From Candidatus Omnitrophota bacterium (GTDB taxonomy: Bacteria > Omnitrophota > Gorgyraeia > Zapsychrales > Zapsychraceae): a stretch of 64,000 nt of DNA. A program made the translations under genes and the position numbers. Of this stretch, positions 27,568 through 37,579 are shown piece by piece. Within the stretch, counting starts at the first letter, position 1; every line of letters starts with the position of its first letter. The notes beneath the pieces are model-generated. The model did no database searches and was not told where the DNA came from. It was given only the letters and a program-made list of their open reading frames with translations. The stretch covers positions 260,876 through 324,875 of the forward strand of contig JAJDCB010000030.1 in assembly GCA_029261065.1 (NCBI GenBank), written 5' to 3'.

Positions 27568-28323
27568 ATGCAGATTATTTCATGGAACGTGAATGGAATC
27601 CGTGCAGCACTTAAGAAAGGCTTTGTTGATTTCGTTCAAAAACAAAATCCTGATATTATCTGTGTTGGTGAAACAAAAGCTCCTGCCGGTGGAATGACAA
27701 TAGAAATAGAGGGTTATCATGAATACTGGAATAATGCCGTTAGACCAGGCTATTCCGGTACAGCCATTTTTTCTAAAATAAAACCAAAAACAGTTAATAA
27801 TGATTTGGGCATATCAAAACATGATCAGGAAGGACGCGTTATAACGGCTGAGTATGAGAAGTTTTATCTAGTTAATGTCTATGTTCCTAATTCAAAAAGA
27901 GCTCTTGAACGTTTACCTTATAGGGAGAAAGAGTGGGATGTAGATTTTTTAAAACATGTGAAAAAATTAGAGAAAAAAAAGCCTGTGATATTTTGTGGAG
28001 ATCTTAACGTCGCACATAAGGAGATCGATTTAAAAAATCCTAAGGGCAATGAAAAAAATCATGGATTTACTCCCCAGGAGAGAAAGGGGTTTGATAATAT
28101 TGTTAGCGCAGGGTTTATCGATACTTTTAGAGAGTTTAATAAAGATGGTGGGCATTATACGTGGTGGAGTCCAATGAATAAATGTCGAGCAAGAAATATT
28201 GGTTGGCGTATTGACTATGTCTGTATGTCTGAAAAATTAAAAGCAAAGCTTAAAAAGGCTTTTATTTTGAATGATGTGATGGGTTCTGATCATTGTCCTG
28301 TTGGTATCGAATTGAGCAATTGA
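27568..28323 (+). CDS. xth: Exodeoxyribonuclease III (AP endonuclease, EEP family)
   Basis: '[13 protein letters not shown]' N-terminus, 'DHCPV' C-terminal motif, 251 aa. Confidence 0.85.
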
Positions 28324-28375
28324 TCTATTTTCTAACTGTAAGAATCAACGATCTTTTATTGTTATCCAACTTTGT

Positions 28376-30511
28376 ATGAAGTTTAATATTATGTTTAATT
28401 TTTTATTTGTTCCTAAAAGATCTTTTCCTTATTGGTTTCTTTCCGTTATATGTCTTTGGGCCTATATAACACTATCTACAAGTAGTGTATCAGCCAATCC
28501 CATTATGGACGTTTCCTATCGCGAGATGTGGGATGTCAAACCAACTCCGATAGAAAATCAGATTAAGGCGAAACCTACTCTTAATAAAGAGAGTGAGCCT
28601 TTGAGAACTGTTTCGATGAAACGTTCTTTTAAAGATGATAATAAGCAGAAACAATATAATCAAGAAGATGTGAGTTATGAGATAGCTCCCGTTTATGTCC
28701 GTCCAAGCCTAGAATATCAAGCCTCGCCTTCTCGAAGCTGGTCTGATGAAGTTGTTGTTACAGCTAAGCGTATCCCTACTTTTTCCAGCCACAGTGCAGA
28801 AAATATAAAAGTTATTACAGAAAAAGACATAGAAAAGTTGCCTGCCAGAAATCTTGGAGAGGTCTTAAAGTATGTTCCAGGGGTGGATGTTCTCTCTACG
28901 TCGGAATTTGGCCAAGCCTCATCTGTTTCGATTAATGGATCGAAGTCAAGGCAAGTGTTGATAATGGTCGATGGTATTCCTTTTAATACACAGCTTTCTG
29001 GTCAAGCGAATCCAACGCGTATTCCCATTGGGCACATTAAGCAAATTGAAGTCATTAAGGGTGCCTCCTCAAGTGCTTGGGGGTCAAGTATTGGAGGTGT
29101 TATTAATGTTATTACCAAAGATGTTGGCGACTCTCATATTCCCGAGGGACAATTTACGACTAGTTACGGTGAGTTTGCTAGTACAACCAACAGTCTAGAT
29201 TTATCAGGAAAGGTTGGTGAGTTAGGCTATTATTTGTCAGGCAGTTTTCTTAAAACAGATGGGCCTTTCTCAGAGACAGATGTCGAAGAAACTAAATCAT
29301 TTCTAAAGCTTGCTCACCCTTTAGCTGATGCTGCGAAATTAACGGCATCATTTGGATATAGTGGGGCAAATGTGCGTTATGGCGTTACGCGATCAAATCG
29401 TATTAATTCAACGCCCTACATCTCTAGATATGGTCAGCTTGTCTTGGATGTTGATAAACCAACATTTGATTTTCAAGCGGCCTATAAGTATAACGATCAA
29501 GATATTACGACAGATATTTTTAATGCCTCAACAGGAGCCTTAGTCTCGGCAACAGTCAGTCACAATTTTCTTCAGGGTGTGGGTTTAAATGGAAGTATGG
29601 AAATCAATGAAACAGATACTTTTGTTTTAGGAGGAGATTTTGACTGGCAAACGCTTAAGTCTAATAATTTTTTAACAGAAAGTAAAAGTATAGGAACACA
29701 GGCCGCTTACAGTAATTACACGAGAAGTACAGATCGTTGGGATGTTATTCCTGGAATCAGATATGATCGAAACGAACATTTTGGCGAGCAATTTAGTCCC
29801 AGCTTTGGTGTTGTTTATCATTTTTTAAATTCTTCCGAAACATTACTCCGTGCAAAAGCCTCCCAAGCCTTCAATGCGCCACCTTTACTATGGATATTTA
29901 ACGATGATCCCACATTATTCGTTGGTCCTAGTCCTGATTTAGACGCTGAAAGTGCAAATGTTTATGAGTTAGGATTAGAGTCTGACATTTCTTCAAGGGT
30001 GCATATGAATTTAAGTTTATATCGCATGGATGTAAAGGATGCGATTGGATTGGTTTTTCAAGGAGGAGCTTTTGTTCAACGTAACTTTAGAAAATTTAGA
30101 AGACAAGGGGCCGAATTGCAACTGCAATATGATATTACTAAGGATTTATCGCTTGTGACAAGTGGAGCTTTTAACGATGTTGAAAATAGAGAGACAGGCC
30201 AGATGGTGCGGGATCAAGGTGTGGCTCGGCAAAGTTATTTGTTGGGTATGAATTATAAAAATAATAAAGGATATGGCGTTTATTTAAATGGTTATTATAA
30301 ACGGTGGAGTTCTTCTCCTTCTTTACAAGCAAACGATCGTAAATTTATATTAGATGCTAAGTTGACAAAAGAATGGGCTAATGTATTTAGACATATGGAT
30401 ATGGAGGTGTTTTTTAATATTCATAATGTTACCAATAGTAAATACTGGTCTAGCATCAATTTTCCTCTTCCCGAAAGGCACCTCGAAGGAGGGCTAACAA
30501 TTAAATTTTAA
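28376..30511 (+). CDS. TonB-dependent outer-membrane receptor
   Basis: Plug domain ('VVVTAKRIPTFSSHSAENIKVITEKDIEKLPARNLGEVLKYVPGV'). Long beta-barrel ending in terminal aromatic 'TIKF'. Confidence 0.8.
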   Translation: MKFNIMFNFLFVPKRSFPYWFLSVICLWAYITLSTSSVSANPIMDVSYREMWDVKPTPIENQIKAKPTLNKESEPLRTVSMKRSFKDDNKQKQYNQEDVSYEIAPVYVRPSLEYQASPSRSWSDEVVVTAKRIPTFSSHSAENIKVITEKDIEKLPARNLGEVLKYVPGVDVLSTSEFGQASSVSINGSKSRQVLIMVDGIPFNTQLSGQANPTRIPIGHIKQIEVIKGASSSAWGSSIGGVINVITKDVGDSHIPEGQFTTSYGEFASTTNSLDLSGKVGELGYYLSGSFLKTDGPFSETDVEETKSFLKLAHPLADAAKLTASFGYSGANVRYGVTRSNRINSTPYISRYGQLVLDVDKPTFDFQAAYKYNDQDITTDIFNASTGALVSATVSHNFLQGVGLNGSMEINETDTFVLGGDFDWQTLKSNNFLTESKSIGTQAAYSNYTRSTDRWDVIPGIRYDRNEHFGEQFSPSFGVVYHFLNSSETLLRAKASQAFNAPPLLWIFNDDPTLFVGPSPDLDAESANVYELGLESDISSRVHMNLSLYRMDVKDAIGLVFQGGAFVQRNFRKFRRQGAELQLQYDITKDLSLVTSGAFNDVENRETGQMVRDQGVARQSYLLGMNYKNNKGYGVYLNGYYKRWSSSPSLQANDRKFILDAKLTKEWANVFRHMDMEVFFNIHNVTNSKYWSSINFPLPERHLEGGLTIKF

Positions 30512-30627
30512 GAGTTAAAGTTTTTTTGTCTTTAAGTAGAAAAAAGTCATGAAATAGTACCCTTATCCTATTTTCATTTTCAAAATTTAAACTATAATTA
30601 TGGTTAATTATTTATGTGTGTAAATTA

Positions 30628-32274
30628 ATGAATAACATCGTAATAAAGGTTTTCTTTTTGGTAATGGCAATATCTTATTCCATACCTACTGCAGTATCAG
30701 CAAATCAATCCACAATCCCTACAAATCGTTTATTAAAATTCAGAGATCAAACTAATCCAAATTTACTTTCATCAGAGCCCCAGTACGGTGGAGAATTAAT
30801 TTGGGGGACAAGCAATCCTCCGTCGATCATTAATCCTATTTTAACACATATGAGTGTTTCCACGAGCCTTGTTCAGCTTATATTCAATGGCCTTGTTAAA
30901 AAAAATCCGCAAGGTGAAATAATTCCTTCGCTAGCAGAATCATGGGATATCTCTGATGATCATCTTACATATACATTTTATTTGAGAAAAAACGTCAGAT
31001 TTCATGACGGTGTCGAACTTACAGCGGAGGATGTTAAATTTACTTATGAGCTGATTGTTAATGATAAAGTAGACTCTATCTATAGATCTTCGCTAATTTC
31101 TGTTAGCCATTTTGATGTGTTAGATAAATATACAATTCGAATTGTTTTGAAAAAGGATGTGCAAAATTTTATTCATCAGCTAGTTCGTTTTATTGTACCT
31201 AAACATTTATTAGAAAATGAAGATGTTCAGAATACAAAATTTAATTATCAACCTATTGGAAGCGGACCATTTAAGTTTCAGAATTGGGATAAAATTACAA
31301 ATGAGATTGAGCTAGTCGCGAATAAAGATTATTTTGAAGGACGACCTTATTTGGATAGCATATTAATCAAGCAATACCCAAATAAGAATGCATTATGGTC
31401 GGCGTTGATGAGAAATGAGGTTGATCTTGTTCTGTTTTTAAGCAAGAAAGACTACAACATTTTAAAGGATGATCCTTCTTATAATGTTTACAGAATACCC
31501 TTGGAATTTAATTGTGCAATTATTTATAACACGCAAGATGCAATACTAAATGATTTTGAAGTTAGAAAGGCGATTGCTCATAGTATTGACAGAAAAAAAT
31601 TGATTTCAGATGTTTCGATTGAAGGTTTAGAAAGCGTGGGACCCTTACATCCCGATGCTTTAAAGGGTGATCATTTGTTAAATCTATTTGAATATAATCC
31701 TCATAAAGCAAAAGTTATTTTGATGCATAGAGGGTGGAGGGATGATAACAAAGATGGAATTCTTGAGAAAGAAGGAAGAGATTTAGAAATTAAACTTTTG
31801 GTTTATGAACAAAATGAAGATTTTAAAAAGATTGTACAAGTTTTACATCAACGATTTGCTGATGTTGGAATAAAGTTAAGTGTTCTTTTGTATAACGACA
31901 ATTTGCAATTAACTGACGAGTTTTTGCAAAAACATAAACCTCAAGCATGGATAAGATTTCTTTCTTCAAGGTTGTCTAATAAGTATGTCAATCTTGGATA
32001 TTGGTACTCTCAATCCAGTGAATTTGGACGATTGTGGAAATATGAAAATAAAAAATTTGATGAAATATATGAAAGTGGATTAATTGAAAAAGATGTGGAT
32101 GAGAGGTACAAGTTATACGAAGAGATGCACGATATCATTTACAAAGATCAACCTGCAAGTTTTTTATTTGTTCCTGTAAGTTATCATGCTGTTTCTGAAA
32201 AATTTAGAAATGTAGACGCATTGTTTAAACATAATATGGCTGTTTATACTTTATCTGAATGGTATTTGGAGTAA
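30628..32274 (+). CDS. Periplasmic solute-binding protein, family 5 (peptide/nickel/opine type; MbnE/OppA/DppA-like)
   Basis: Signal peptide 'MNNIVIKVFFLVMAISYSIPTAVSA'. SBP_bac_5 core ('LVKKNPQGEIIPSLAESWDISDDHLTYTFYLRKNVRFHDG'). No permease or ATPase genes adjacent. Confidence 0.75.
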   Translation: MNNIVIKVFFLVMAISYSIPTAVSANQSTIPTNRLLKFRDQTNPNLLSSEPQYGGELIWGTSNPPSIINPILTHMSVSTSLVQLIFNGLVKKNPQGEIIPSLAESWDISDDHLTYTFYLRKNVRFHDGVELTAEDVKFTYELIVNDKVDSIYRSSLISVSHFDVLDKYTIRIVLKKDVQNFIHQLVRFIVPKHLLENEDVQNTKFNYQPIGSGPFKFQNWDKITNEIELVANKDYFEGRPYLDSILIKQYPNKNALWSALMRNEVDLVLFLSKKDYNILKDDPSYNVYRIPLEFNCAIIYNTQDAILNDFEVRKAIAHSIDRKKLISDVSIEGLESVGPLHPDALKGDHLLNLFEYNPHKAKVILMHRGWRDDNKDGILEKEGRDLEIKLLVYEQNEDFKKIVQVLHQRFADVGIKLSVLLYNDNLQLTDEFLQKHKPQAWIRFLSSRLSNKYVNLGYWYSQSSEFGRLWKYENKKFDEIYESGLIEKDVDERYKLYEEMHDIIYKDQPASFLFVPVSYHAVSEKFRNVDALFKHNMAVYTLSEWYLE

Positions 32275-32305
32275 AGTGCTTAACTAAAAGAAAGGAGGAG
32301 AAAAA

Positions 32306-32410
32306 ATGGAAATTGTAAAATTGGGTTCAAATGATTTAAATCAACAAGATTCATTGAATTGTTGTTGGCCACCCGGGGCAGAGGTGTTAGAAACCCCATC
32401 GGATGAATAA
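32306..32410 (+). CDS. Candidate RiPP precursor peptide, 34 aa (MEIVKLGSNDLNQQDSLNCCWPPGAEVLETPSDE); absent from the ORF track
   Basis: Near-perfect RBS 'aaggaggag' 6 nt upstream of ATG 32306; in-frame stop upstream at 32285. Immediately precedes a radical SAM/SPASM enzyme. Cys-Cys-Trp-Pro-Pro-Gly core, acidic C-terminus. Confidence 0.55.
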   Translation: MEIVKLGSNDLNQQDSLNCCWPPGAEVLETPSDE

Positions 32411-32422
32411 CTTTTCATAAAT

Positions 32423-32485
32423 TTTTAGCGCACTATTTATCAATAACTGCGGCATTTAGTAAGGTTGAAAAATAGTGCGCTAAAA
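32423..32485 (+). promoter_or_regulatory. 16-bp perfect inverted repeat (TTTTAGCGCACTATTT / AAATAGTGCGCTAAAA) between the peptide gene and the radical SAM gene
   Basis: Arms at 32423..32438 and 32470..32485 with a 31-nt spacer. Either an RNA hairpin (attenuator or processing site setting the precursor:enzyme ratio) or a palindromic operator. Confidence 0.5.
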
Positions 32486-32514
32486 GTTTACGGAATAAAT
32501 AAAGGATTTTTCAT

Positions 32515-33882
32515 ATGAAGTTTTCTTGCCATACTATCATTGTCGATCATTACCCAGAAGTAAATCAGCACTTACTTTATAATACACGCACACAGTCGAT
32601 GATCAAAATTGATCAAGAACTTCGGCGTACTATTGAAGAGTATCCTAAAAATATTAAGATGATTTCAAAAAAGACTTGGGAGGATTTGAAGGCCTTACAC
32701 AATATGGGTATATTAGTTGAAAATGATGACGAAGATATGCTTAGACTTAAAAGTCATATGATGCAACTTAAGAAAAGTGTAAACGCAAAAGTTTTGCCGA
32801 TAACTATTTTAACGACATATGCCTGTAACTTTAAATGTAGCTATTGCTTTCAAGAAAGTTCACGTACCTTTGATAAGATGACAACAGAAACAAGTGACCA
32901 TGTGATTAGCTGGTTAAAATATAAAGTGAAGCAGTTTGGCTATCAAAAACTGCTCATTAATTTTTATGGGGGGGAGCCGCTTGTTAATCAGCGTACTTTA
33001 AAAGAAATTGTCAGTCAGATGAAACCTTGGTGTGAAGGAGAAGGTGTTGAGTTTAAGTTTATGTTACAAACTAATGGTTATTTGATGACTTCCCAATTGG
33101 TTGATGAATATATCGAGATGGGTTTAGATCAGGTTCGTATTTCTGTTGATGGTGTTGGGGAAGATCACGATCGGCATCGACCGTTAAGAAATGGGAAGGG
33201 GACGTTTGATCGCGTTATGAAAAATATTGTTGATAATGTTGATAAATTGAAAATTGGGATTTCTATTAGTTATGATAAAGGACAAGTTGATCATATTGAA
33301 CGATTTTTTGATTACTGCAATGATTTAGGAATAACAAAAAAATTGGGCCGATTTATCTTTTCTCCTATACATGCAACTTTGGGGCCAAAAGAGAAGCCTG
33401 AGATGATACAAAATTCAAGCTGCATGTGTAATTACGAAGATAAAAGTTTAGAGGATGCGAATCGTAAAATTAATGCTCTTATGCGTGCCAATGGGCTTGT
33501 AAGTAAAAGTGGTATGTCAACATCTACATGTCCTGTCACACGTGATAATTCTGGGATGACGATAGACCAGCATGGACATTTGTATAAATGTAACTCCATG
33601 TTAGGGCATCCGGAGCTCTCTACAGGGCATGTGAAAGATCTTATCTATAATCAAAAACATCGTGAATTTGTTAATTTGGATGTTTACAAACAATGCCCTG
33701 TTGATTGCACCTATATGCCAATGTGTAGTGGCGGGTGTCGATTATCCTCGTTTTTAAAAAACAAAAACTTTACTACACCCACCTGCCACAAGCCTTATCT
33801 TAATAAGATGGCGCCGGATTTAATCAAAAAAGATTATGAGTCCTTGATGGCAAAGGCAAAGCCTTCATTAGCAAAGAGTTGA
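32515..33882 (+). CDS. Radical SAM / SPASM-domain peptide-modifying enzyme with N-terminal RRE-like extension
   Basis: CxxxCxxC 'CNFKCSYC' begins at residue 104, after a ~95-aa N-terminal domain. C-terminal Cys-rich SPASM region ('CPVTRD', 'CNSMLGH', 'CPVDCTYMPMCSGGC'). Confidence 0.75.
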   Translation: MKFSCHTIIVDHYPEVNQHLLYNTRTQSMIKIDQELRRTIEEYPKNIKMISKKTWEDLKALHNMGILVENDDEDMLRLKSHMMQLKKSVNAKVLPITILTTYACNFKCSYCFQESSRTFDKMTTETSDHVISWLKYKVKQFGYQKLLINFYGGEPLVNQRTLKEIVSQMKPWCEGEGVEFKFMLQTNGYLMTSQLVDEYIEMGLDQVRISVDGVGEDHDRHRPLRNGKGTFDRVMKNIVDNVDKLKIGISISYDKGQVDHIERFFDYCNDLGITKKLGRFIFSPIHATLGPKEKPEMIQNSSCMCNYEDKSLEDANRKINALMRANGLVSKSGMSTSTCPVTRDNSGMTIDQHGHLYKCNSMLGHPELSTGHVKDLIYNQKHREFVNLDVYKQCPVDCTYMPMCSGGCRLSSFLKNKNFTTPTCHKPYLNKMAPDLIKKDYESLMAKAKPSLAKS

Positions 33883-34035
33883 GATTTATCGATTATGCGA
33901 GGCTATAAGCTGTTCTTACCTAGAGTCTTTTTAATTGATTAACATTTTAAGTTATAGTAGTCTATTAAAAAGTGCTCCATCTAAAGTCTTTTACCGATAT
34001 GTCCATTTCCATGGAAAAGGCCACAATACAAACAT

Positions 34036-35793
34036 ATGAGATTTAACTTCAAGCGTTTACGTTTTTTATTTCCAAATCGTATTTGGCATCAGATATTTTT
34101 TGTCCTCATTTTTATGGTGGTCATTCCGCTTGTCATTTTGGGGACGTTACTTATTACAACGAGTAAAAGAACGATTAAAACCTCAGTTTTAAGGGATTAT
34201 AAGCAAATTGCCATTCATGCGACGGGAGAAGTTGAGCAAAGTATTGAAGGGGCAAAGCATGCCTTAGAAGTAGCGGCCTCGATTTTAGGAATCCTACAGT
34301 CCGATATTTGGCGTCAAGAAACCACATTAGTTGAGTTAGCCTTACAATATCCCGCCTATCGACGTGTATCCAGCGTTGATTTAAATGGAGAAGAGCTGGC
34401 AACATCCGAGTTGGGGACTATTTTTCGTGACTGGTCCAATGAAAAAGTCTTTAAAGAGGCGCGTGAGGGAAATGCTTATATTTCTAAAGTCAGGATAGGT
34501 GCAGATCATATCCCATTATTAATTATTGCGACGCCCATTATATCGTTGGGTAAGACTAGGGGGGTGCTTATAGGAGAGCTAAATATTAGGGGAATTTGGG
34601 ATATTGTCGATAGCATCAAATTTGGCGAGACGGGGCGTGCTTATTTAATTGATCAAGAGGGACGGGTGATTGCTCATCCGGATAAAAAGATTGTGTTTCA
34701 AAATAATGCCGTTATCTCTCCTAAAGTCCCTAGCGCTGTCTTGCAGGGAAAGTCAGGGGCCATTGAACAAAAGGATGAGAATTCAAGAATGTGGTTGGTG
34801 TCATACGCTCCAGTAGAAGGGCTTAATTGGGGCTTGATCATCTCTCAATTGGAATCTGAAGCCATGAGCTTTTCAAAGGTTATGCAACATCAATCATGGT
34901 TACTCATTGGTCTAAGTTTACTGGCGACTGTATTGATAAGTTTTATCTTGGCCAGATCTATTCGTCGACCTATTCATCATCTTATAGATGGAACAAATCG
35001 TTTAGCTAAAGGAGACTATGGGTTTTCGTTTCGTATCGGACAAAGAAATGAGATCGGTAAATTACTGTTTTCGTTTAATCGAATGGCCAGAAAGCTTGAA
35101 AAGGCACAACGAATGGAGCGGTTATCTTTTGTTGGTCGTGCCGCAACAGCTATTGCCCATGAATTGAAAAATTCTCTTGTTCTTGTAAAAACGTTTGTTC
35201 AACTTTTACCAGAGAGACATCAAGAAGAAAAGTTTATTAAAGATTTTTCAAAAATAATTCCTCGAGAATTAGAAACGTGGAATGAGATGTTAAGGGGTAT
35301 TATGGAATATTCTAGAAATAAGGATTTTTCAAAAGAATTAATTGACGTTAATCAAATGATTGAAAATGTTTTTTCTTTGGCCGAGTTGCGAGTTAAACAA
35401 AAAGACATTGAGTTAAATTTAAATATGAATTCAGATATTCCTCGCGTTTTTGGAAATGAAGAGAAGCTAAAGCAAGTTGTGCTTAATTTGGTTACTAACG
35501 CTATAGATGCTACATCAACAGGGGGTTCGATTACAATGGCGACAGAATTGGTGCCTATGAAGGATGCTAGTGGATACGAGGTAGAGTTGAAAGTTATTGA
35601 TACAGGAGAAGGTATGAGCCAAGAGCAAGTTTCAAGGATTTTCGAACCATTTTTTTCTACCAAAAAAAATGGATTAGGTCTGGGGTTGGCTATAAGCCAG
35701 GATATTGTTAAGCATCATGGGGGCGTTATTCAAGTTTATTTAAACAAATTTGAAACGTCTTTTGTTGTTAGATTGCCAGTATCAACAGCTTAG
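34036..35793 (+). CDS. Sensor histidine kinase with periplasmic Cache-like domain, HAMP, HisKA, HATPase_c
   Basis: TM1 at residues ~20-42 and TM2 at ~285-305 around a ~240-aa periplasmic domain. H-box 'AHELKNSLVLV'. 'DTGEGM...GLGLGLAISQDIV'. Confidence 0.75.
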   Translation: MRFNFKRLRFLFPNRIWHQIFFVLIFMVVIPLVILGTLLITTSKRTIKTSVLRDYKQIAIHATGEVEQSIEGAKHALEVAASILGILQSDIWRQETTLVELALQYPAYRRVSSVDLNGEELATSELGTIFRDWSNEKVFKEAREGNAYISKVRIGADHIPLLIIATPIISLGKTRGVLIGELNIRGIWDIVDSIKFGETGRAYLIDQEGRVIAHPDKKIVFQNNAVISPKVPSAVLQGKSGAIEQKDENSRMWLVSYAPVEGLNWGLIISQLESEAMSFSKVMQHQSWLLIGLSLLATVLISFILARSIRRPIHHLIDGTNRLAKGDYGFSFRIGQRNEIGKLLFSFNRMARKLEKAQRMERLSFVGRAATAIAHELKNSLVLVKTFVQLLPERHQEEKFIKDFSKIIPRELETWNEMLRGIMEYSRNKDFSKELIDVNQMIENVFSLAELRVKQKDIELNLNMNSDIPRVFGNEEKLKQVVLNLVTNAIDATSTGGSITMATELVPMKDASGYEVELKVIDTGEGMSQEQVSRIFEPFFSTKKNGLGLGLAISQDIVKHHGGVIQVYLNKFETSFVVRLPVSTA

Positions 35794-35924
35794 ATAACAA
35801 ACAATTTTTGGTAGAAAAAAGTCAGCAAGTGGAACCTTGGCCCTATTTACAAATTTTGAAAAGTTTGTCATAGTATTAATCAATTCAATTAAGTTTTTTA
35901 ATTAATATTTTTATTAGGAGCAAT

Positions 35925-36656
35925 ATGCTATCTGAAACAATTGTGGTTATTGATGATGATGAGCGTGTAATTCAAAGTTTAGAACTAGCTCTTAGCGAAT
36001 ATGAAGTGGTTGGTTTTGAAAAGCCTAAAGAGGCAATGGTTTATTTACGTAAGCCGAATGAAGTAAGTCTTGTTTTATTGGATGTTATGATGCCTAAAGT
36101 TAATGGTATTAACATTCTTCAAGAAATCAAAAGTTTAAAAACAGATTTATCGGTCATAATGATTACGGCTTACGGCTCAAAAGATGTTGTCATGCAAGCG
36201 TTAAGAAATAAAGCAGATGATTTTATTGAAAAGCCTTTCGATATCAAAGAAATTAGACAAAAAATTAAAGAACATTTGAGTAAAAAATTAAAGTTTTCAA
36301 CTTATGGCGTCACGCAAAATCTTCATGTGGAGCGTATCAGACGTTTTATCGATCGAAATTACAATAATGTAAATTTAGATGAAATAGCCAGCCAAATGTG
36401 TTTAAGTCCCAAATATATTAGTCGGCTTTTTAATAGAGTTAATGACATCGATTTTCGTGATTATAAAGTGCAAGTAAAAATTAAACGTGCCAAAGATCTT
36501 CTTGTAAACACCTCTTTAAGTGTCCACGATATATCTAACGATTTGGGCTATCAAAATCCGGAATCATTTATGCGTATTTTTAAACAAAAAGTTAAACTTA
36601 CTCCTATGCAGTATCGAAAAAAGAGTTTAGTCTCTCAAAGTATAGATCATGAATAA
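35925..36656 (+). CDS. Response regulator with receiver and AraC-type HTH output
   Basis: REC ('VVIDDDERV', 'LVLLDVMMPKVNG') plus C-terminal AraC HTH ('YISRLFNRVNDIDFRDYKVQVKIKRAKDLL...PESFMRIFK'). Confidence 0.75.
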   Translation: MLSETIVVIDDDERVIQSLELALSEYEVVGFEKPKEAMVYLRKPNEVSLVLLDVMMPKVNGINILQEIKSLKTDLSVIMITAYGSKDVVMQALRNKADDFIEKPFDIKEIRQKIKEHLSKKLKFSTYGVTQNLHVERIRRFIDRNYNNVNLDEIASQMCLSPKYISRLFNRVNDIDFRDYKVQVKIKRAKDLLVNTSLSVHDISNDLGYQNPESFMRIFKQKVKLTPMQYRKKSLVSQSIDHE

Positions 36657-37047
36657 TGTTAAGATATTAATTATCGATGGACACCCTGTTTATTATCAGA
36701 AAACAGTTGGGTTTCTTAAAGGTCTAACGTTAAAAGACATTACAACGGCTAGTTCAGGCCAAGAGGGACTTAAAAAGGTTGATATGTTAAGGCCGGATCT
36801 CATCATGATGAGTGCTATGTTGCCAGATTTTGATGGCGTAGATATTTGTAGAGAAATTAGGGCTATTAAAGACTACACACCAAAAATTATTGTTCAAATA
36901 GGTGTCTTTTATGAAGAAAAGGATATAGACGATCTTTATCAAAGTGGGGCGAACAAAGTTGTTCTTCGCAAAGAAAAAGACTTCTTATCTTTAGAGAAGG
37001 CCATTGATGAGTTGTTGTTCTCAAAGTCAGGATCCCGCCAAAGTTAG
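36649..37047 (+). CDS. Atypical single-domain receiver (pseudo-receiver) lacking the phospho-acceptor Asp
   Basis: Receiver fold, but the canonical 'DLxxLD' site reads 'DLIMMSAM' (Asp replaced by Ser). Overlaps the upstream AraC-RR gene by 8 nt. Confidence 0.55.
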   Translation: MNNVKILIIDGHPVYYQKTVGFLKGLTLKDITTASSGQEGLKKVDMLRPDLIMMSAMLPDFDGVDICREIRAIKDYTPKIIVQIGVFYEEKDIDDLYQSGANKVVLRKEKDFLSLEKAIDELLFSKSGSRQS

Positions 37048-37189
37048 CCATTTCCTATTTTAAATGGGACCAATCATATTTATCGTATTAAATAATATTT
37101 AATCATTATCTTTTCTCTGCTCCTATTTGTTGTAAAATAATTATAGAATATTTCTATTTCTATTAATTATTAAAGTAGAGGGGAGTGTT

Positions 37190-37579
37190 ATGCCAACTAT
37201 ATTTTCAAAAATCATTAATGGTGAAATTCCTTGTCATAAAATTCTTGAAGATGATAATTATTTATCTTTTTTAGATGTGCGTCCTGTTTGTGATGGTCAT
37301 GCCTTAGTGATTCCAAAAAGAGAAGTAGATTATATTTTTGATATACCAGATGATGAGTTGTCTGGTTTAATGGTGTTTTCAAAAAAAATTGCACACGCTA
37401 TGAAGAAGGCTATTGTTTGTAAAAAAATTGGTGTTATGGTGGCGGGATTAGAAGTAGCACATGCCCATGTGCATTTAATTCCAATAGAAAGTGTATCTGA
37501 TTTAAGTTTTTCAAATGCAAAAGATGTTAGTGTAGAACATTTATCTCAAGTCGTCGAGAAAATTAAAAAAGAGCTCTGA
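37190..37579 (+). CDS. HIT-family (histidine triad) nucleotide hydrolase
   Basis: 'HAHVHLIP' histidine triad, 129 aa. Confidence 0.8.
   Translation: MPTIFSKIINGEIPCHKILEDDNYLSFLDVRPVCDGHALVIPKREVDYIFDIPDDELSGLMVFSKKIAHAMKKAIVCKKIGVMVAGLEVAHAHVHLIPIESVSDLSFSNAKDVSVEHLSQVVEKIKKEL

Follow-up and report, generated by a model that had tools for sequence, protein, structure and literature searches.

A putative radical SAM/SPASM peptide maturase from Omnitrophota, paired with a small Cys-Cys peptide and linked to uptake and sensing genes

Enzymes that combine a RiPP recognition element (RRE), a radical S-adenosylmethionine (SAM) domain and a SPASM domain are a well-known kind of maturase for peptides that are ribosomally synthesized and then modified post-translationally (RiPPs). 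The RRE is defined by a winged helix of three strands and three helices; in CteB it binds the leader of the substrate CteA as a strand, and an auxiliary cluster of the enzyme has an open iron site available to a Cys of the substrate (PMC8326336). PapB (the freyrasin ranthipeptide maturase) and QhpD are radical SAM/SPASM enzymes that join the sulfur of a Cys to a beta or gamma carbon (PMC9413430, PMC8326336). The geopeptide system is represented in databases by a precursor model (TIGR04229) and a maturase model (TIGR04280); the latter has the status of ‘hypothetical equivalog’, i.e. it has never been characterized, and therefore brings no known chemistry. Literature searches on geopeptides, TIGR04280 and CefB/FlmE/OhkG, on RiPPs combined with a TonB-dependent receptor and a two-component sensor, and on metallophores combined with radical SAM enzymes found nothing relevant. 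Omnitrophota are known almost only from metagenomes, and two papers on them that mention radical SAM genes do not discuss the peptide/maturase system described here. Here we describe a locus in a 64,000-nt stretch of DNA from a Candidatus Omnitrophota bacterium (contig JAJDCB010000030.1; hereafter the window), where a gene for an enzyme of this ordinary architecture lies downstream of a gene for a 34-residue peptide with a Cys-Cys (CC) pair.

We propose, with a probability of about 0.8, that the enzyme is an RRE-radical SAM-SPASM maturase acting on this adjacent CC peptide. The peptide gene lies 104 nt upstream of the enzyme gene, has a strong ribosome-binding site (AAAGGAGGAG) 7 nt upstream and has already been called by gene callers in public assemblies. 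Its product, MEIVKLGSNDLNQQDSLNCCWPPGAEVLETPSDE, divides into a leader (residues 1-18), Cys19-Cys20 (codons at 32360-32365) and a core, CCWPPGAEVLETPSDE. In about 45 loci, which come from at least six phyla, homologous small open reading frames (ORFs) were found upstream of the enzyme, and all close relatives examined, as well as geopeptide loci, have one of the same design directly upstream. An alignment of 36 peptides from six or more phyla shows an invariant Cys-Cys pair and a near-invariant Gly7, the latter preceded by a hydrophobic pair. The 24 peptides of the close clade align without gaps and share the consensus M-E-I-I-x-x-G-[TS]-[DE]-D-[VLI]-x-[EQ]-[ML]-x-x-L-x-C-C-[WFY]-P-P-G-[TS]-[EQ]-x-[LIM]-x-x-P-E..., in which C19, C20 and P22 are conserved in 24/24, G7 in 23/24 and P31 in 17/24, before an acidic and variable C-terminal tail. 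CCWPPG is the close-clade form of the invariant pair; a pattern coding for it occurs once in the window, with 0 occurrences expected by chance. The 34-residue ORF is strongly backed as a real precursor and the probable substrate of the enzyme, because the pairing of precursor and enzyme is conserved across phyla; the original prediction had given the enzyme a peptide-modifying role on this adjacent product, and the pairing speaks for it.

The two strongest phmmer matches of the peptide, P0122 (647 aa) and P0124 (387 aa), were dropped as unrelated repeat proteins. They carry ‘KLNCCPPSGGEGEVETLP’ or ‘SLSVCWTPPGGEV’ five times each, and their nature appears to be that of a fibronectin-III-like repeat and possibly a spurious ORF.

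The enzyme ORF starts with ATG and encodes 15 Cys (residues 5, 104, 108, 111, 173, 268, 303, 305, 339, 359, 394, 398, 404, 408 and 424). The original prediction had placed a CxxxCxxC motif at residue 104, behind an extension of about 95 residues, and at least seven Cys with SPASM-like spacing within the C-terminal 120; both were found. CNFKCSYC is the sole CxxxCxxC of the enzyme, and the last 120 residues hold exactly seven Cys (339, 359, 394, 398, 404, 408 and 424). In an alignment of 26 sequences (the query and 25 homologues at 38-65% identity) no variation was seen at C104, C108, C111, G354 or any of the seven C-terminal Cys, and hardly any at C303. Pfam Radical_SAM (PF04055) matched residues 99-240 at 67.2 bits (gathering threshold 29.5), and Fer4_12 was matched as well. 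For the SPASM domain, with its two auxiliary clusters, we used the pattern C-x9-15-G-x4-C ... C-x2-3-C-x5-C-x3-C ... C, to which C339-x14-G354-x4-C359, C394-x3-C398-x5-C404-x3-C408 and C424 correspond. The SPASM model TIGR04085, which had been proposed as a check, passed its cutoff of 27 with 41.5 bits at residues 346-421 when the C-terminal 166 aa were searched; the Pfam SPASM model (PF13186) gave no match in the enzyme. Two alignments to the anaerobic sulfatase maturase (anSME) disagree on C303 and on the cluster to which individual Cys should be assigned. By its motifs the enzyme has all the sequence features required for reductive cleavage of SAM and for two auxiliary clusters.

An AlphaFold2 model of the enzyme, made from the 26-sequence alignment, has a predicted local distance difference test score (pLDDT) of 91.4 and a predicted template modelling score of 0.87. 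Its best fold match in the Protein Data Bank (PDB) is CteB, the SCIFF thioether synthase, over the full length (E 1.7e-18, 477 columns); anSME is the second-best structural neighbour, and TigE, SuiB, ChlB and SkfB follow. CteB is also the closest solved structure by sequence (E 7.7e-21).

The N-terminal 95 residues are conserved in the same alignment, with S4, P14 and K86 invariant and L20, T24, R25, Q27, K31, L61, G65 and V68 near-invariant, and the homologues share the start methionine of the enzyme; because of this the extension is taken as a genuine domain and not a mis-called start. Described beforehand as rich in strands and then helical, the domain is predicted to have three strands (residues 7-11, 18-23 and 28-33) followed by three helices (34-42, 52-63 and 71-87), and the stretch HTIIVDHYPEV... 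is strand-rich and then helical in the full-length model, which puts the strands at 7-10, 18-23 and 29-33 and the helices at 34-41, 52-63 and 71-87. This order, b1-b2-b3-a1-a2-a3, is that of the RRE fold, predicted here with a pLDDT of about 91. Residues 1-96 were modelled separately (pLDDT 90.9) and searched with Foldseek against 350,000 PDB chains. The top match was TbiB1, a stand-alone lasso-peptide RRE whose crystal structure includes the bound leader (E 0.015, probability 1.0, TM 0.52/0.58); the N-terminal domain of TigE also matched (query TM 0.66, root-mean-square deviation 3.3 A), and those of SuiB and CteB were among the best matches. In NCBIfam, the geopeptide, CefB, FlmE/OhkG and TIGR04463 models align from residue 1 or nearby and the SCIFF model from residue 31; the models cover the N-terminus, and the domain is therefore common to those families. 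The structure models thus lend support to an RRE-like domain of the leader-binding type. In anSME, by contrast, residue 12 pairs with residue 101 of the enzyme and there is no N-terminal domain, as had been anticipated.

Among NCBIfam models the top match of the enzyme is TIGR04280, the geopeptide radical SAM maturase (254.9 bits, cutoff 400). Other matches are CefB (176 bits, cutoff 600), TIGR04463 (167, cutoff 525), PapB (NF047865; 146.5, cutoff 340), FlmE/OhkG (137, cutoff 500), Clo7bot (126, cutoff 600), CcpM (117, cutoff 500), SCIFF (TIGR03974; 113, cutoff 425) and anSME (TIGR03942; 73.9, cutoff 349). TIGR04280 is the top match not only for the enzyme but for all relatives tested: enzymes from Geobacter, Desulfuromonadales and Nitrospirota loci are true members (535-677 bits), and scores stay below the cutoff in Omnitrophota (247-255), Planctomycetota (349), a spirochaete (312) and Auribacterota (259). 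Because TIGR04280 tops the matches yet the scores fall below its cutoff, the enzyme is assigned by sequence to a lineage that is sister to the geopeptide maturases and is found mainly in Omnitrophota. Nearly all of its closest database homologues (up to 65% identity) stem from metagenome bins of Omnitrophota, where their annotation says no more than ‘radical SAM protein’ or ‘SPASM domain-containing protein’. We class the enzyme no further than radical SAM and SPASM, with a domain resembling an RRE.

By the same scores the enzyme is placed with RiPP maturases rather than with anSME. The original prediction had named as fatal another identity for the N-terminal region together with clustering among anSME or HemW; instead, RiPP maturases top the NCBIfam list and CteB is the closest structure. 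It could still be argued that the enzyme is a radical SAM protein with a role in housekeeping or in protein modification (anSME-, HemW- or QhpD-like) and merely lies near a chance small ORF, and anSME and the heme-related AhbC and NirJ do appear in the match lists, at low scores. We consider this very improbable: enzyme and small ORF stay together in at least six phyla, the RRE-like domain is present here and absent from anSME, and the cluster holds no sulfatase or QhpC-like partner.

Between the precursor and enzyme genes lies an 83-nt stem-loop (-35.5 kcal/mol, z -7.5, 0/200 shuffles as stable), the core of which is a perfect 21-bp stem (32418-32490). In nearly all related loci the precursor stop codon is likewise followed at once by a strong hairpin, of unrelated sequence, and in several of them a run of T comes next. 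A simple terminator scan misses the hairpin of the window, whose loop exceeds the limit of the scan, and in 28000-37500, hairpin included, Rfam recognized neither a riboswitch nor any other known RNA. In bacteriocin and RiPP operons the precursor transcript is often stabilized, or read-through into the enzyme genes attenuated. The stem-loop is a probable attenuator or transcript stabilizer, and by analogy the arrangement argues that the precursor gene would be expressed at a higher level than the enzyme gene.

A strong hairpin behind tandem Cys codons, upstream of a gene for an Fe-S enzyme, might also be read as a regulatory leader only, in which the Cys codons control a terminator and the peptide has no function. 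That this is so seems to us extremely improbable, since the hairpin comes only after the stop codon, some 45 nt away from the Cys codons, and no anti-terminator pairing is apparent; since conservation around the CC pair and in the leader is at the protein level, which a codon sensor would not need; and since the enzyme has an RRE-like, and so putatively peptide-binding, domain. The attenuator-leader and non-RiPP readings were both rejected, on the conserved peptide-enzyme pairing, the RRE-like domain and the placement of the hairpin.

As a maturase of the CC peptide the enzyme would work as follows. The leader (MEIIxxG..D..) would bind the RRE as a beta strand, as we infer because its conserved hydrophobic part is what an RRE would take as an added strand. 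The enzyme would then cleave SAM and take a hydrogen from a residue of the core, and Cys19 and Cys20 would, through their thiols, close one or two thioether rings onto downstream residues. Thioether chemistry is favoured because the nearest families of known chemistry, PapB, SCIFF/CteB and QhpD, all join Cys sulfur to a carbon of another residue, because all named families of known chemistry among the higher-scoring matches make Cys thioethers, and because the only invariant feature of the core is the CC pair; argued by analogy in this way, its chances fall just short of even.

The same enzyme and substrate might be joined by another chemistry, such as conversion of Cys20 to formylglycine, a C-C or C-O cross-link at Trp21, or epimerization. 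The target motif that anSME modifies in sulfatases is C-x-P-x-R, and C20-x-P22, present in 24/24 close-clade peptides, resembles it; in the window this part (32363-32377) encodes Cys20-Trp-Pro-Pro-Gly, and the likeness may be a coincidence or a hint of related substrate positioning. An aromatic residue at position 21 is likewise conserved in the close clade, and cyclophane or ether formers of the DynA, YhhB and GrrM type are among the NCBIfam matches. Prediction of the chemistry is, moreover, hard below high identity (PMC10288494). Against such chemistries, only CC is invariant family-wide, the Trp and Pro after it being lost in spirochaete, Geobacter and Nitrospirota peptides, and anSME scores 74 bits versus 147-255 for the higher-ranked RiPP maturase families, of which PapB alone has a known chemistry, the thioether. 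We judge a chemistry of this other sort possible but somewhat doubtful.

The precursor and enzyme genes belong to a cluster of seven genes, all on one strand (Table 1). For comparison, related loci were fetched (labelled L001, L006 and so on); a metagenome scan with the single enzyme protein as query yielded 6 loci.

Table 1. Features of the seven-gene cluster (28376-37047, all on the + strand) in window coordinates
Feature	Position	Strand	Evidence or remarks
TonB-dependent outer-membrane receptor, 711 aa	28376..30511	+	Pfam Plug and TonB_dep_Rec_b-barrel; first gene of the cluster
Family-5 periplasmic solute-binding protein, 552 aa, N-terminal signal peptide	30616..32274	+	Pfam SBP_bac_5, E 1.5e-75
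Putative precursor peptide gene, 34 aa	32306..32410	+	Conserved small ORF, strong ribosome-binding site
Long stem-loop between precursor and enzyme genes	32413..32495	+	RNA fold
Putative radical SAM/SPASM peptide maturase, 455 aa	32515..33882	+	Pfam Radical_SAM, TIGR04085, TIGR04280 top match
RRE-like N-terminal domain, enzyme residues 1-95	32515..32799	+	AlphaFold2 topology, Foldseek
CxxxCxxC motif CNFKCSYC, enzyme residues 104-111	32824..32847	+	Predicted ligands of the SAM-binding [4Fe-4S] cluster
SPASM region, enzyme residues 339-424	33529..33786	+	Cys pattern, TIGR04085
Sensor histidine kinase, 585 aa (periplasmic dCache_1, HAMP, HATPase_c)	34036..35793	+	Pfam
Response regulator with AraC-type DNA-binding output, 243 aa	35925..36656	+	Pfam Response_reg and HTH_18/HTH_AraC
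Receiver-only response regulator, 132 aa	36649..37047	+	Pfam Response_reg; 8-nt overlap with the preceding gene

Co-occurrence was counted over the 27 loci that have a CC peptide and span at least 11 kb. All 27 have a TonB-dependent receptor and a binding protein, the latter of family 5 in 16 and of PF04392 in 11, and a histidine kinase is present in 26; the sole exception is a Geobacter locus (L061, 692-5588), where a PF04392 protein and a receptor are followed by aconitase. In Omnitrophota, Planctomycetota and Auribacterota the conserved order is receptor, family-5 binding protein, peptide, radical SAM enzyme, (ATP-binding cassette (ABC) exporter), dCache kinase and regulator. Orthologues of the receptor hold the same position in related loci, the binding protein is conserved directly upstream of the precursor, and kinase orthologues lie downstream of the enzyme; the AraC-type regulator is syntenic in Omnitrophota loci and the receiver-only regulator in L001, L006 and L088. 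Loci of the Geobacter and Nitrospirota type keep the receptor and usually the kinase, with a divergent PF04392 binding protein instead of family 5. Two shorter spirochaete loci keep binding protein, peptide, enzyme and kinase, and no receptor was detected in them. A half-size ABC exporter (550-600 aa, ABC_membrane and ABC_tran, without a C39 peptidase domain) lies between enzyme and kinase in 11 related loci, for example at 7371-9080 in L001, 8362-10092 in L088 and 8422-10164 in L089. An importer permease or ATPase was not found conserved in the clusters of the related loci examined.

The receptor of the window is longer (711 aa) than its orthologues (616-658 aa). The extra 70-90 residues or so are Lys/Gln/Glu-rich and lie between signal peptide and plug, within the first 120 residues or so (28376-28740). 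In two Omnitrophota metagenome-assembled genome (MAG) contigs, L006 (4153-7415) and L007 (2102-7342), the receptor, binding-protein and radical SAM genes are split into several ORFs; these may be pseudogenes or, more likely, the result of indel errors in long-read assembly. In L016 (3586-8643), from an unclassified bacterial MAG, the radical SAM gene is followed by three family-5 binding-protein paralogues in tandem, and no CC peptide was found upstream of that gene.

The product would be made in the cytoplasm and leave the cell as a small molecule, to re-enter the periplasm through the TonB-dependent receptor. There it would be bound by the family-5 protein, by the dCache kinase or by both, with the binding protein acting as a co-receptor of the kinase, and the kinase would signal through the AraC-type regulator, closing a peptide signalling loop. 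The reading of a product that is released and sensed follows from the presence of an exporter (in many loci), a receptor, a binding protein and a kinase without an inner-membrane importer. Co-receptor arrangements have precedents in LuxP/LuxQ and TorT/TorS, and in Sus-type loci of Bacteroides a TonB-dependent receptor feeds a periplasmic sensor. A role in peptide signalling is tentative and, in our estimate, somewhat below even odds. Taken further, the system might be self-contained signalling in double-membraned, mostly uncultivated bacteria, where the cross-linked CC mini-peptide would be an autoinducer, imported by its own receptor and sensed by a kinase assisted by a binding protein, in Omnitrophota, Planctomycetota, spirochaetes and Auribacterota and, in a variant form, in Desulfobacterota and Nitrospirota; this fuller version is rather unlikely, though by no means remote.

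A receptor with a binding protein is also the classic pair for metallophore uptake. The product of the same enzyme and substrate could instead bind a metal (Ni, Co or Cu) or be a cofactor-like public good that is recaptured, the two-component system serving only for regulation. The best NCBIfam matches of the receptor are, below threshold, heme and B12 (BtuB) receptors; those of the binding protein are weak and below cutoff and include Opp4A, NikA and CntA, the last a binder of staphylopine-metal complexes; and two adjacent thiols are good ligands for soft metals. These NikA, CntA, heme and B12 similarity scores are, however, all far below the family cutoffs. No import ABC permease or ATPase is conserved in any locus, the cluster is without a metal regulator, Cys turned into thioethers would be poor ligands, and the fold of the binding protein swaps between clades while adjacency to the sensor kinase stays. 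We therefore think a metal-binding or cofactor-like product improbable, although it is the main rival to a role in signalling.

Several results weigh against the proposed maturation of a released and sensed CC peptide, at one step or another. No specific NCBIfam family has a curated cutoff that the enzyme reaches. The geopeptide precursor model TIGR04229 (cutoff 30 bits) gives no match to the window peptide; Geobacter-type peptides reach up to 35 bits with it, the orthologue of the Omnitrophota locus L001 gives a weak match (20.6 bits, E 2.7e-4), and the leader pattern and invariant CC are common to window and geopeptide-type peptides in the alignment despite the miss. PqqD (PF05402) was matched by none of the 26 N-terminal domains at E-values up to 10, a profile search of PDB sequences with the domain returned noise only, and the Foldseek E-values of the RRE matches are weak, from 0.015 to 0.5. 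Of the PqqD-like RRE in the original prediction, then, the RRE part is upheld by the fold and by the best structural matches, weak as their E-values are, and the profile likeness to PqqD is not. The chemistry is not readable from sequence, and the C-C and C-O linkers DynA, YhhB and GrrM, themselves radical SAM-SPASM enzymes, score similarly in the NCBIfam list. The pair of receptor and binding protein fits uptake of a nutrient or metal chelate too. In the window the enzyme gene is followed by a 153-nt gap (33883-34035), with no orthologue of the ABC exporter within the 64 kb; the exporter is also absent in L086, L087, L090 and the Planctomycetota loci. Nor is a leader protease encoded in the window. 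With neither exporter nor leader protease encoded there, secretion and processing of the peptide are conjectural.

A distant clade from Acidobacteriota/Vicinamibacterales, at 24-30% identity, has the order regulator, radical SAM enzyme, family-5 binding protein, kinase (L018-L031, L039, L040, L045 and L046). A -24/-12 promoter of the type TGGAAC-N5-TTGCA was found 80-240 nt upstream of the radical SAM gene in 15 of the 17 loci scanned, against a background of 8%. From its size and HTH_8-like C-terminus the regulator of these loci is apparently a sigma-54 activator, and the promoter pattern points to an operon under the control of its own two-component system. Upstream of the Acidobacteriota radical SAM genes neither a conserved small ORF nor a CC peptide was recognized, and no sigma-54 promoter was found upstream of the genes of the window.

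About 50 of the 56 ORFs of at least 120 aa in the window are on the + strand, and GC skew is above 0 in all of its 2-kb bins (0.08-0.29), at a G+C content of 32-41%. Both fit a single replichore with a strong leading-strand gene bias.

The substrate is pared down to an invariant CC in a product of some 10-15 residues, which makes it a very tractable target for work on enzyme function. Across at least six phyla, precursor and enzyme are tied to an importer, a binding protein and a two-component sensor, even where the fold of the binding protein is swapped. This linkage suggests a molecule that is released and recaptured, and it offers a way into the study of signalling between cells, or of the exchange of public goods, in Omnitrophota. 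If the autoinducer reading were true, it would be RiPP-based quorum sensing with active import across the outer membrane, unlike any characterized system.

Compared with known systems, the enzyme shares with anSME (PDB 4K36-4K39) the radical SAM and SPASM domains and the same seven-Cys layout, but anSME is without the N-terminal domain and acts on sulfatase proteins. The PQQ (pyrroloquinoline quinone) system is a functional analogy only. There PqqE, a radical SAM/SPASM enzyme, and the RRE PqqD turn the tiny PqqA into a small product, which is taken up by the TonB-dependent PqqU. PqqE and the PqqU model do appear in our match lists, but PqqE is a weak match (E 7e-4) with its RRE on a separate protein, several further PQQ enzymes are absent here, and the window peptide has no conserved Glu/Tyr pair. 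PapB is the highest-scoring family with known chemistry, but its model aligns only from residue 95, leaving the N-terminal domain uncovered, and PapB targets repeated C-x3-D motifs, which are absent from the window peptide. CteB of Clostridium thermocellum, the SCIFF/ranthipeptide maturase (PDB 5WGG/5WHY), has the same order of RRE, radical SAM and SPASM, at an identity of only 18-20%. Where a SCIFF precursor has six Cys within some 45 residues, the window peptide has one CC pair, and to our knowledge SCIFF loci are Gram-positive and without receptor, binding protein or kinase.

The geopeptide system shares more with the locus. Its maturase model aligns with the enzyme end to end (enzyme residues 1-440 to model positions 1-424 of 428). 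Directly upstream is a short precursor whose hydrophobic leader, Gly and invariant Cys-Cys are likewise in common; a hairpin comes after it, and the neighbours include a TonB-dependent receptor as well as a periplasmic binding protein. The two differ in that geopeptide maturases have 26-29% identity to the window enzyme, which is below the TIGR04280 cutoff. Their precursors have a core of CC and small residues ending in R-S or K-L, whereas that of the window is CCWPPG[TS][EQ]...P-E with an acidic tail. Geopeptide loci have a divergent PF04392 binding protein where the window has one of family 5 and co-directional genes, and their hosts are Desulfobacterota or Nitrospirota where the host of the window belongs to Omnitrophota. 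Nothing in this comparison overturns current understanding; what is new is the lineage, the CCWPPG substrate and the constant coupling to a module for uptake and sensing.

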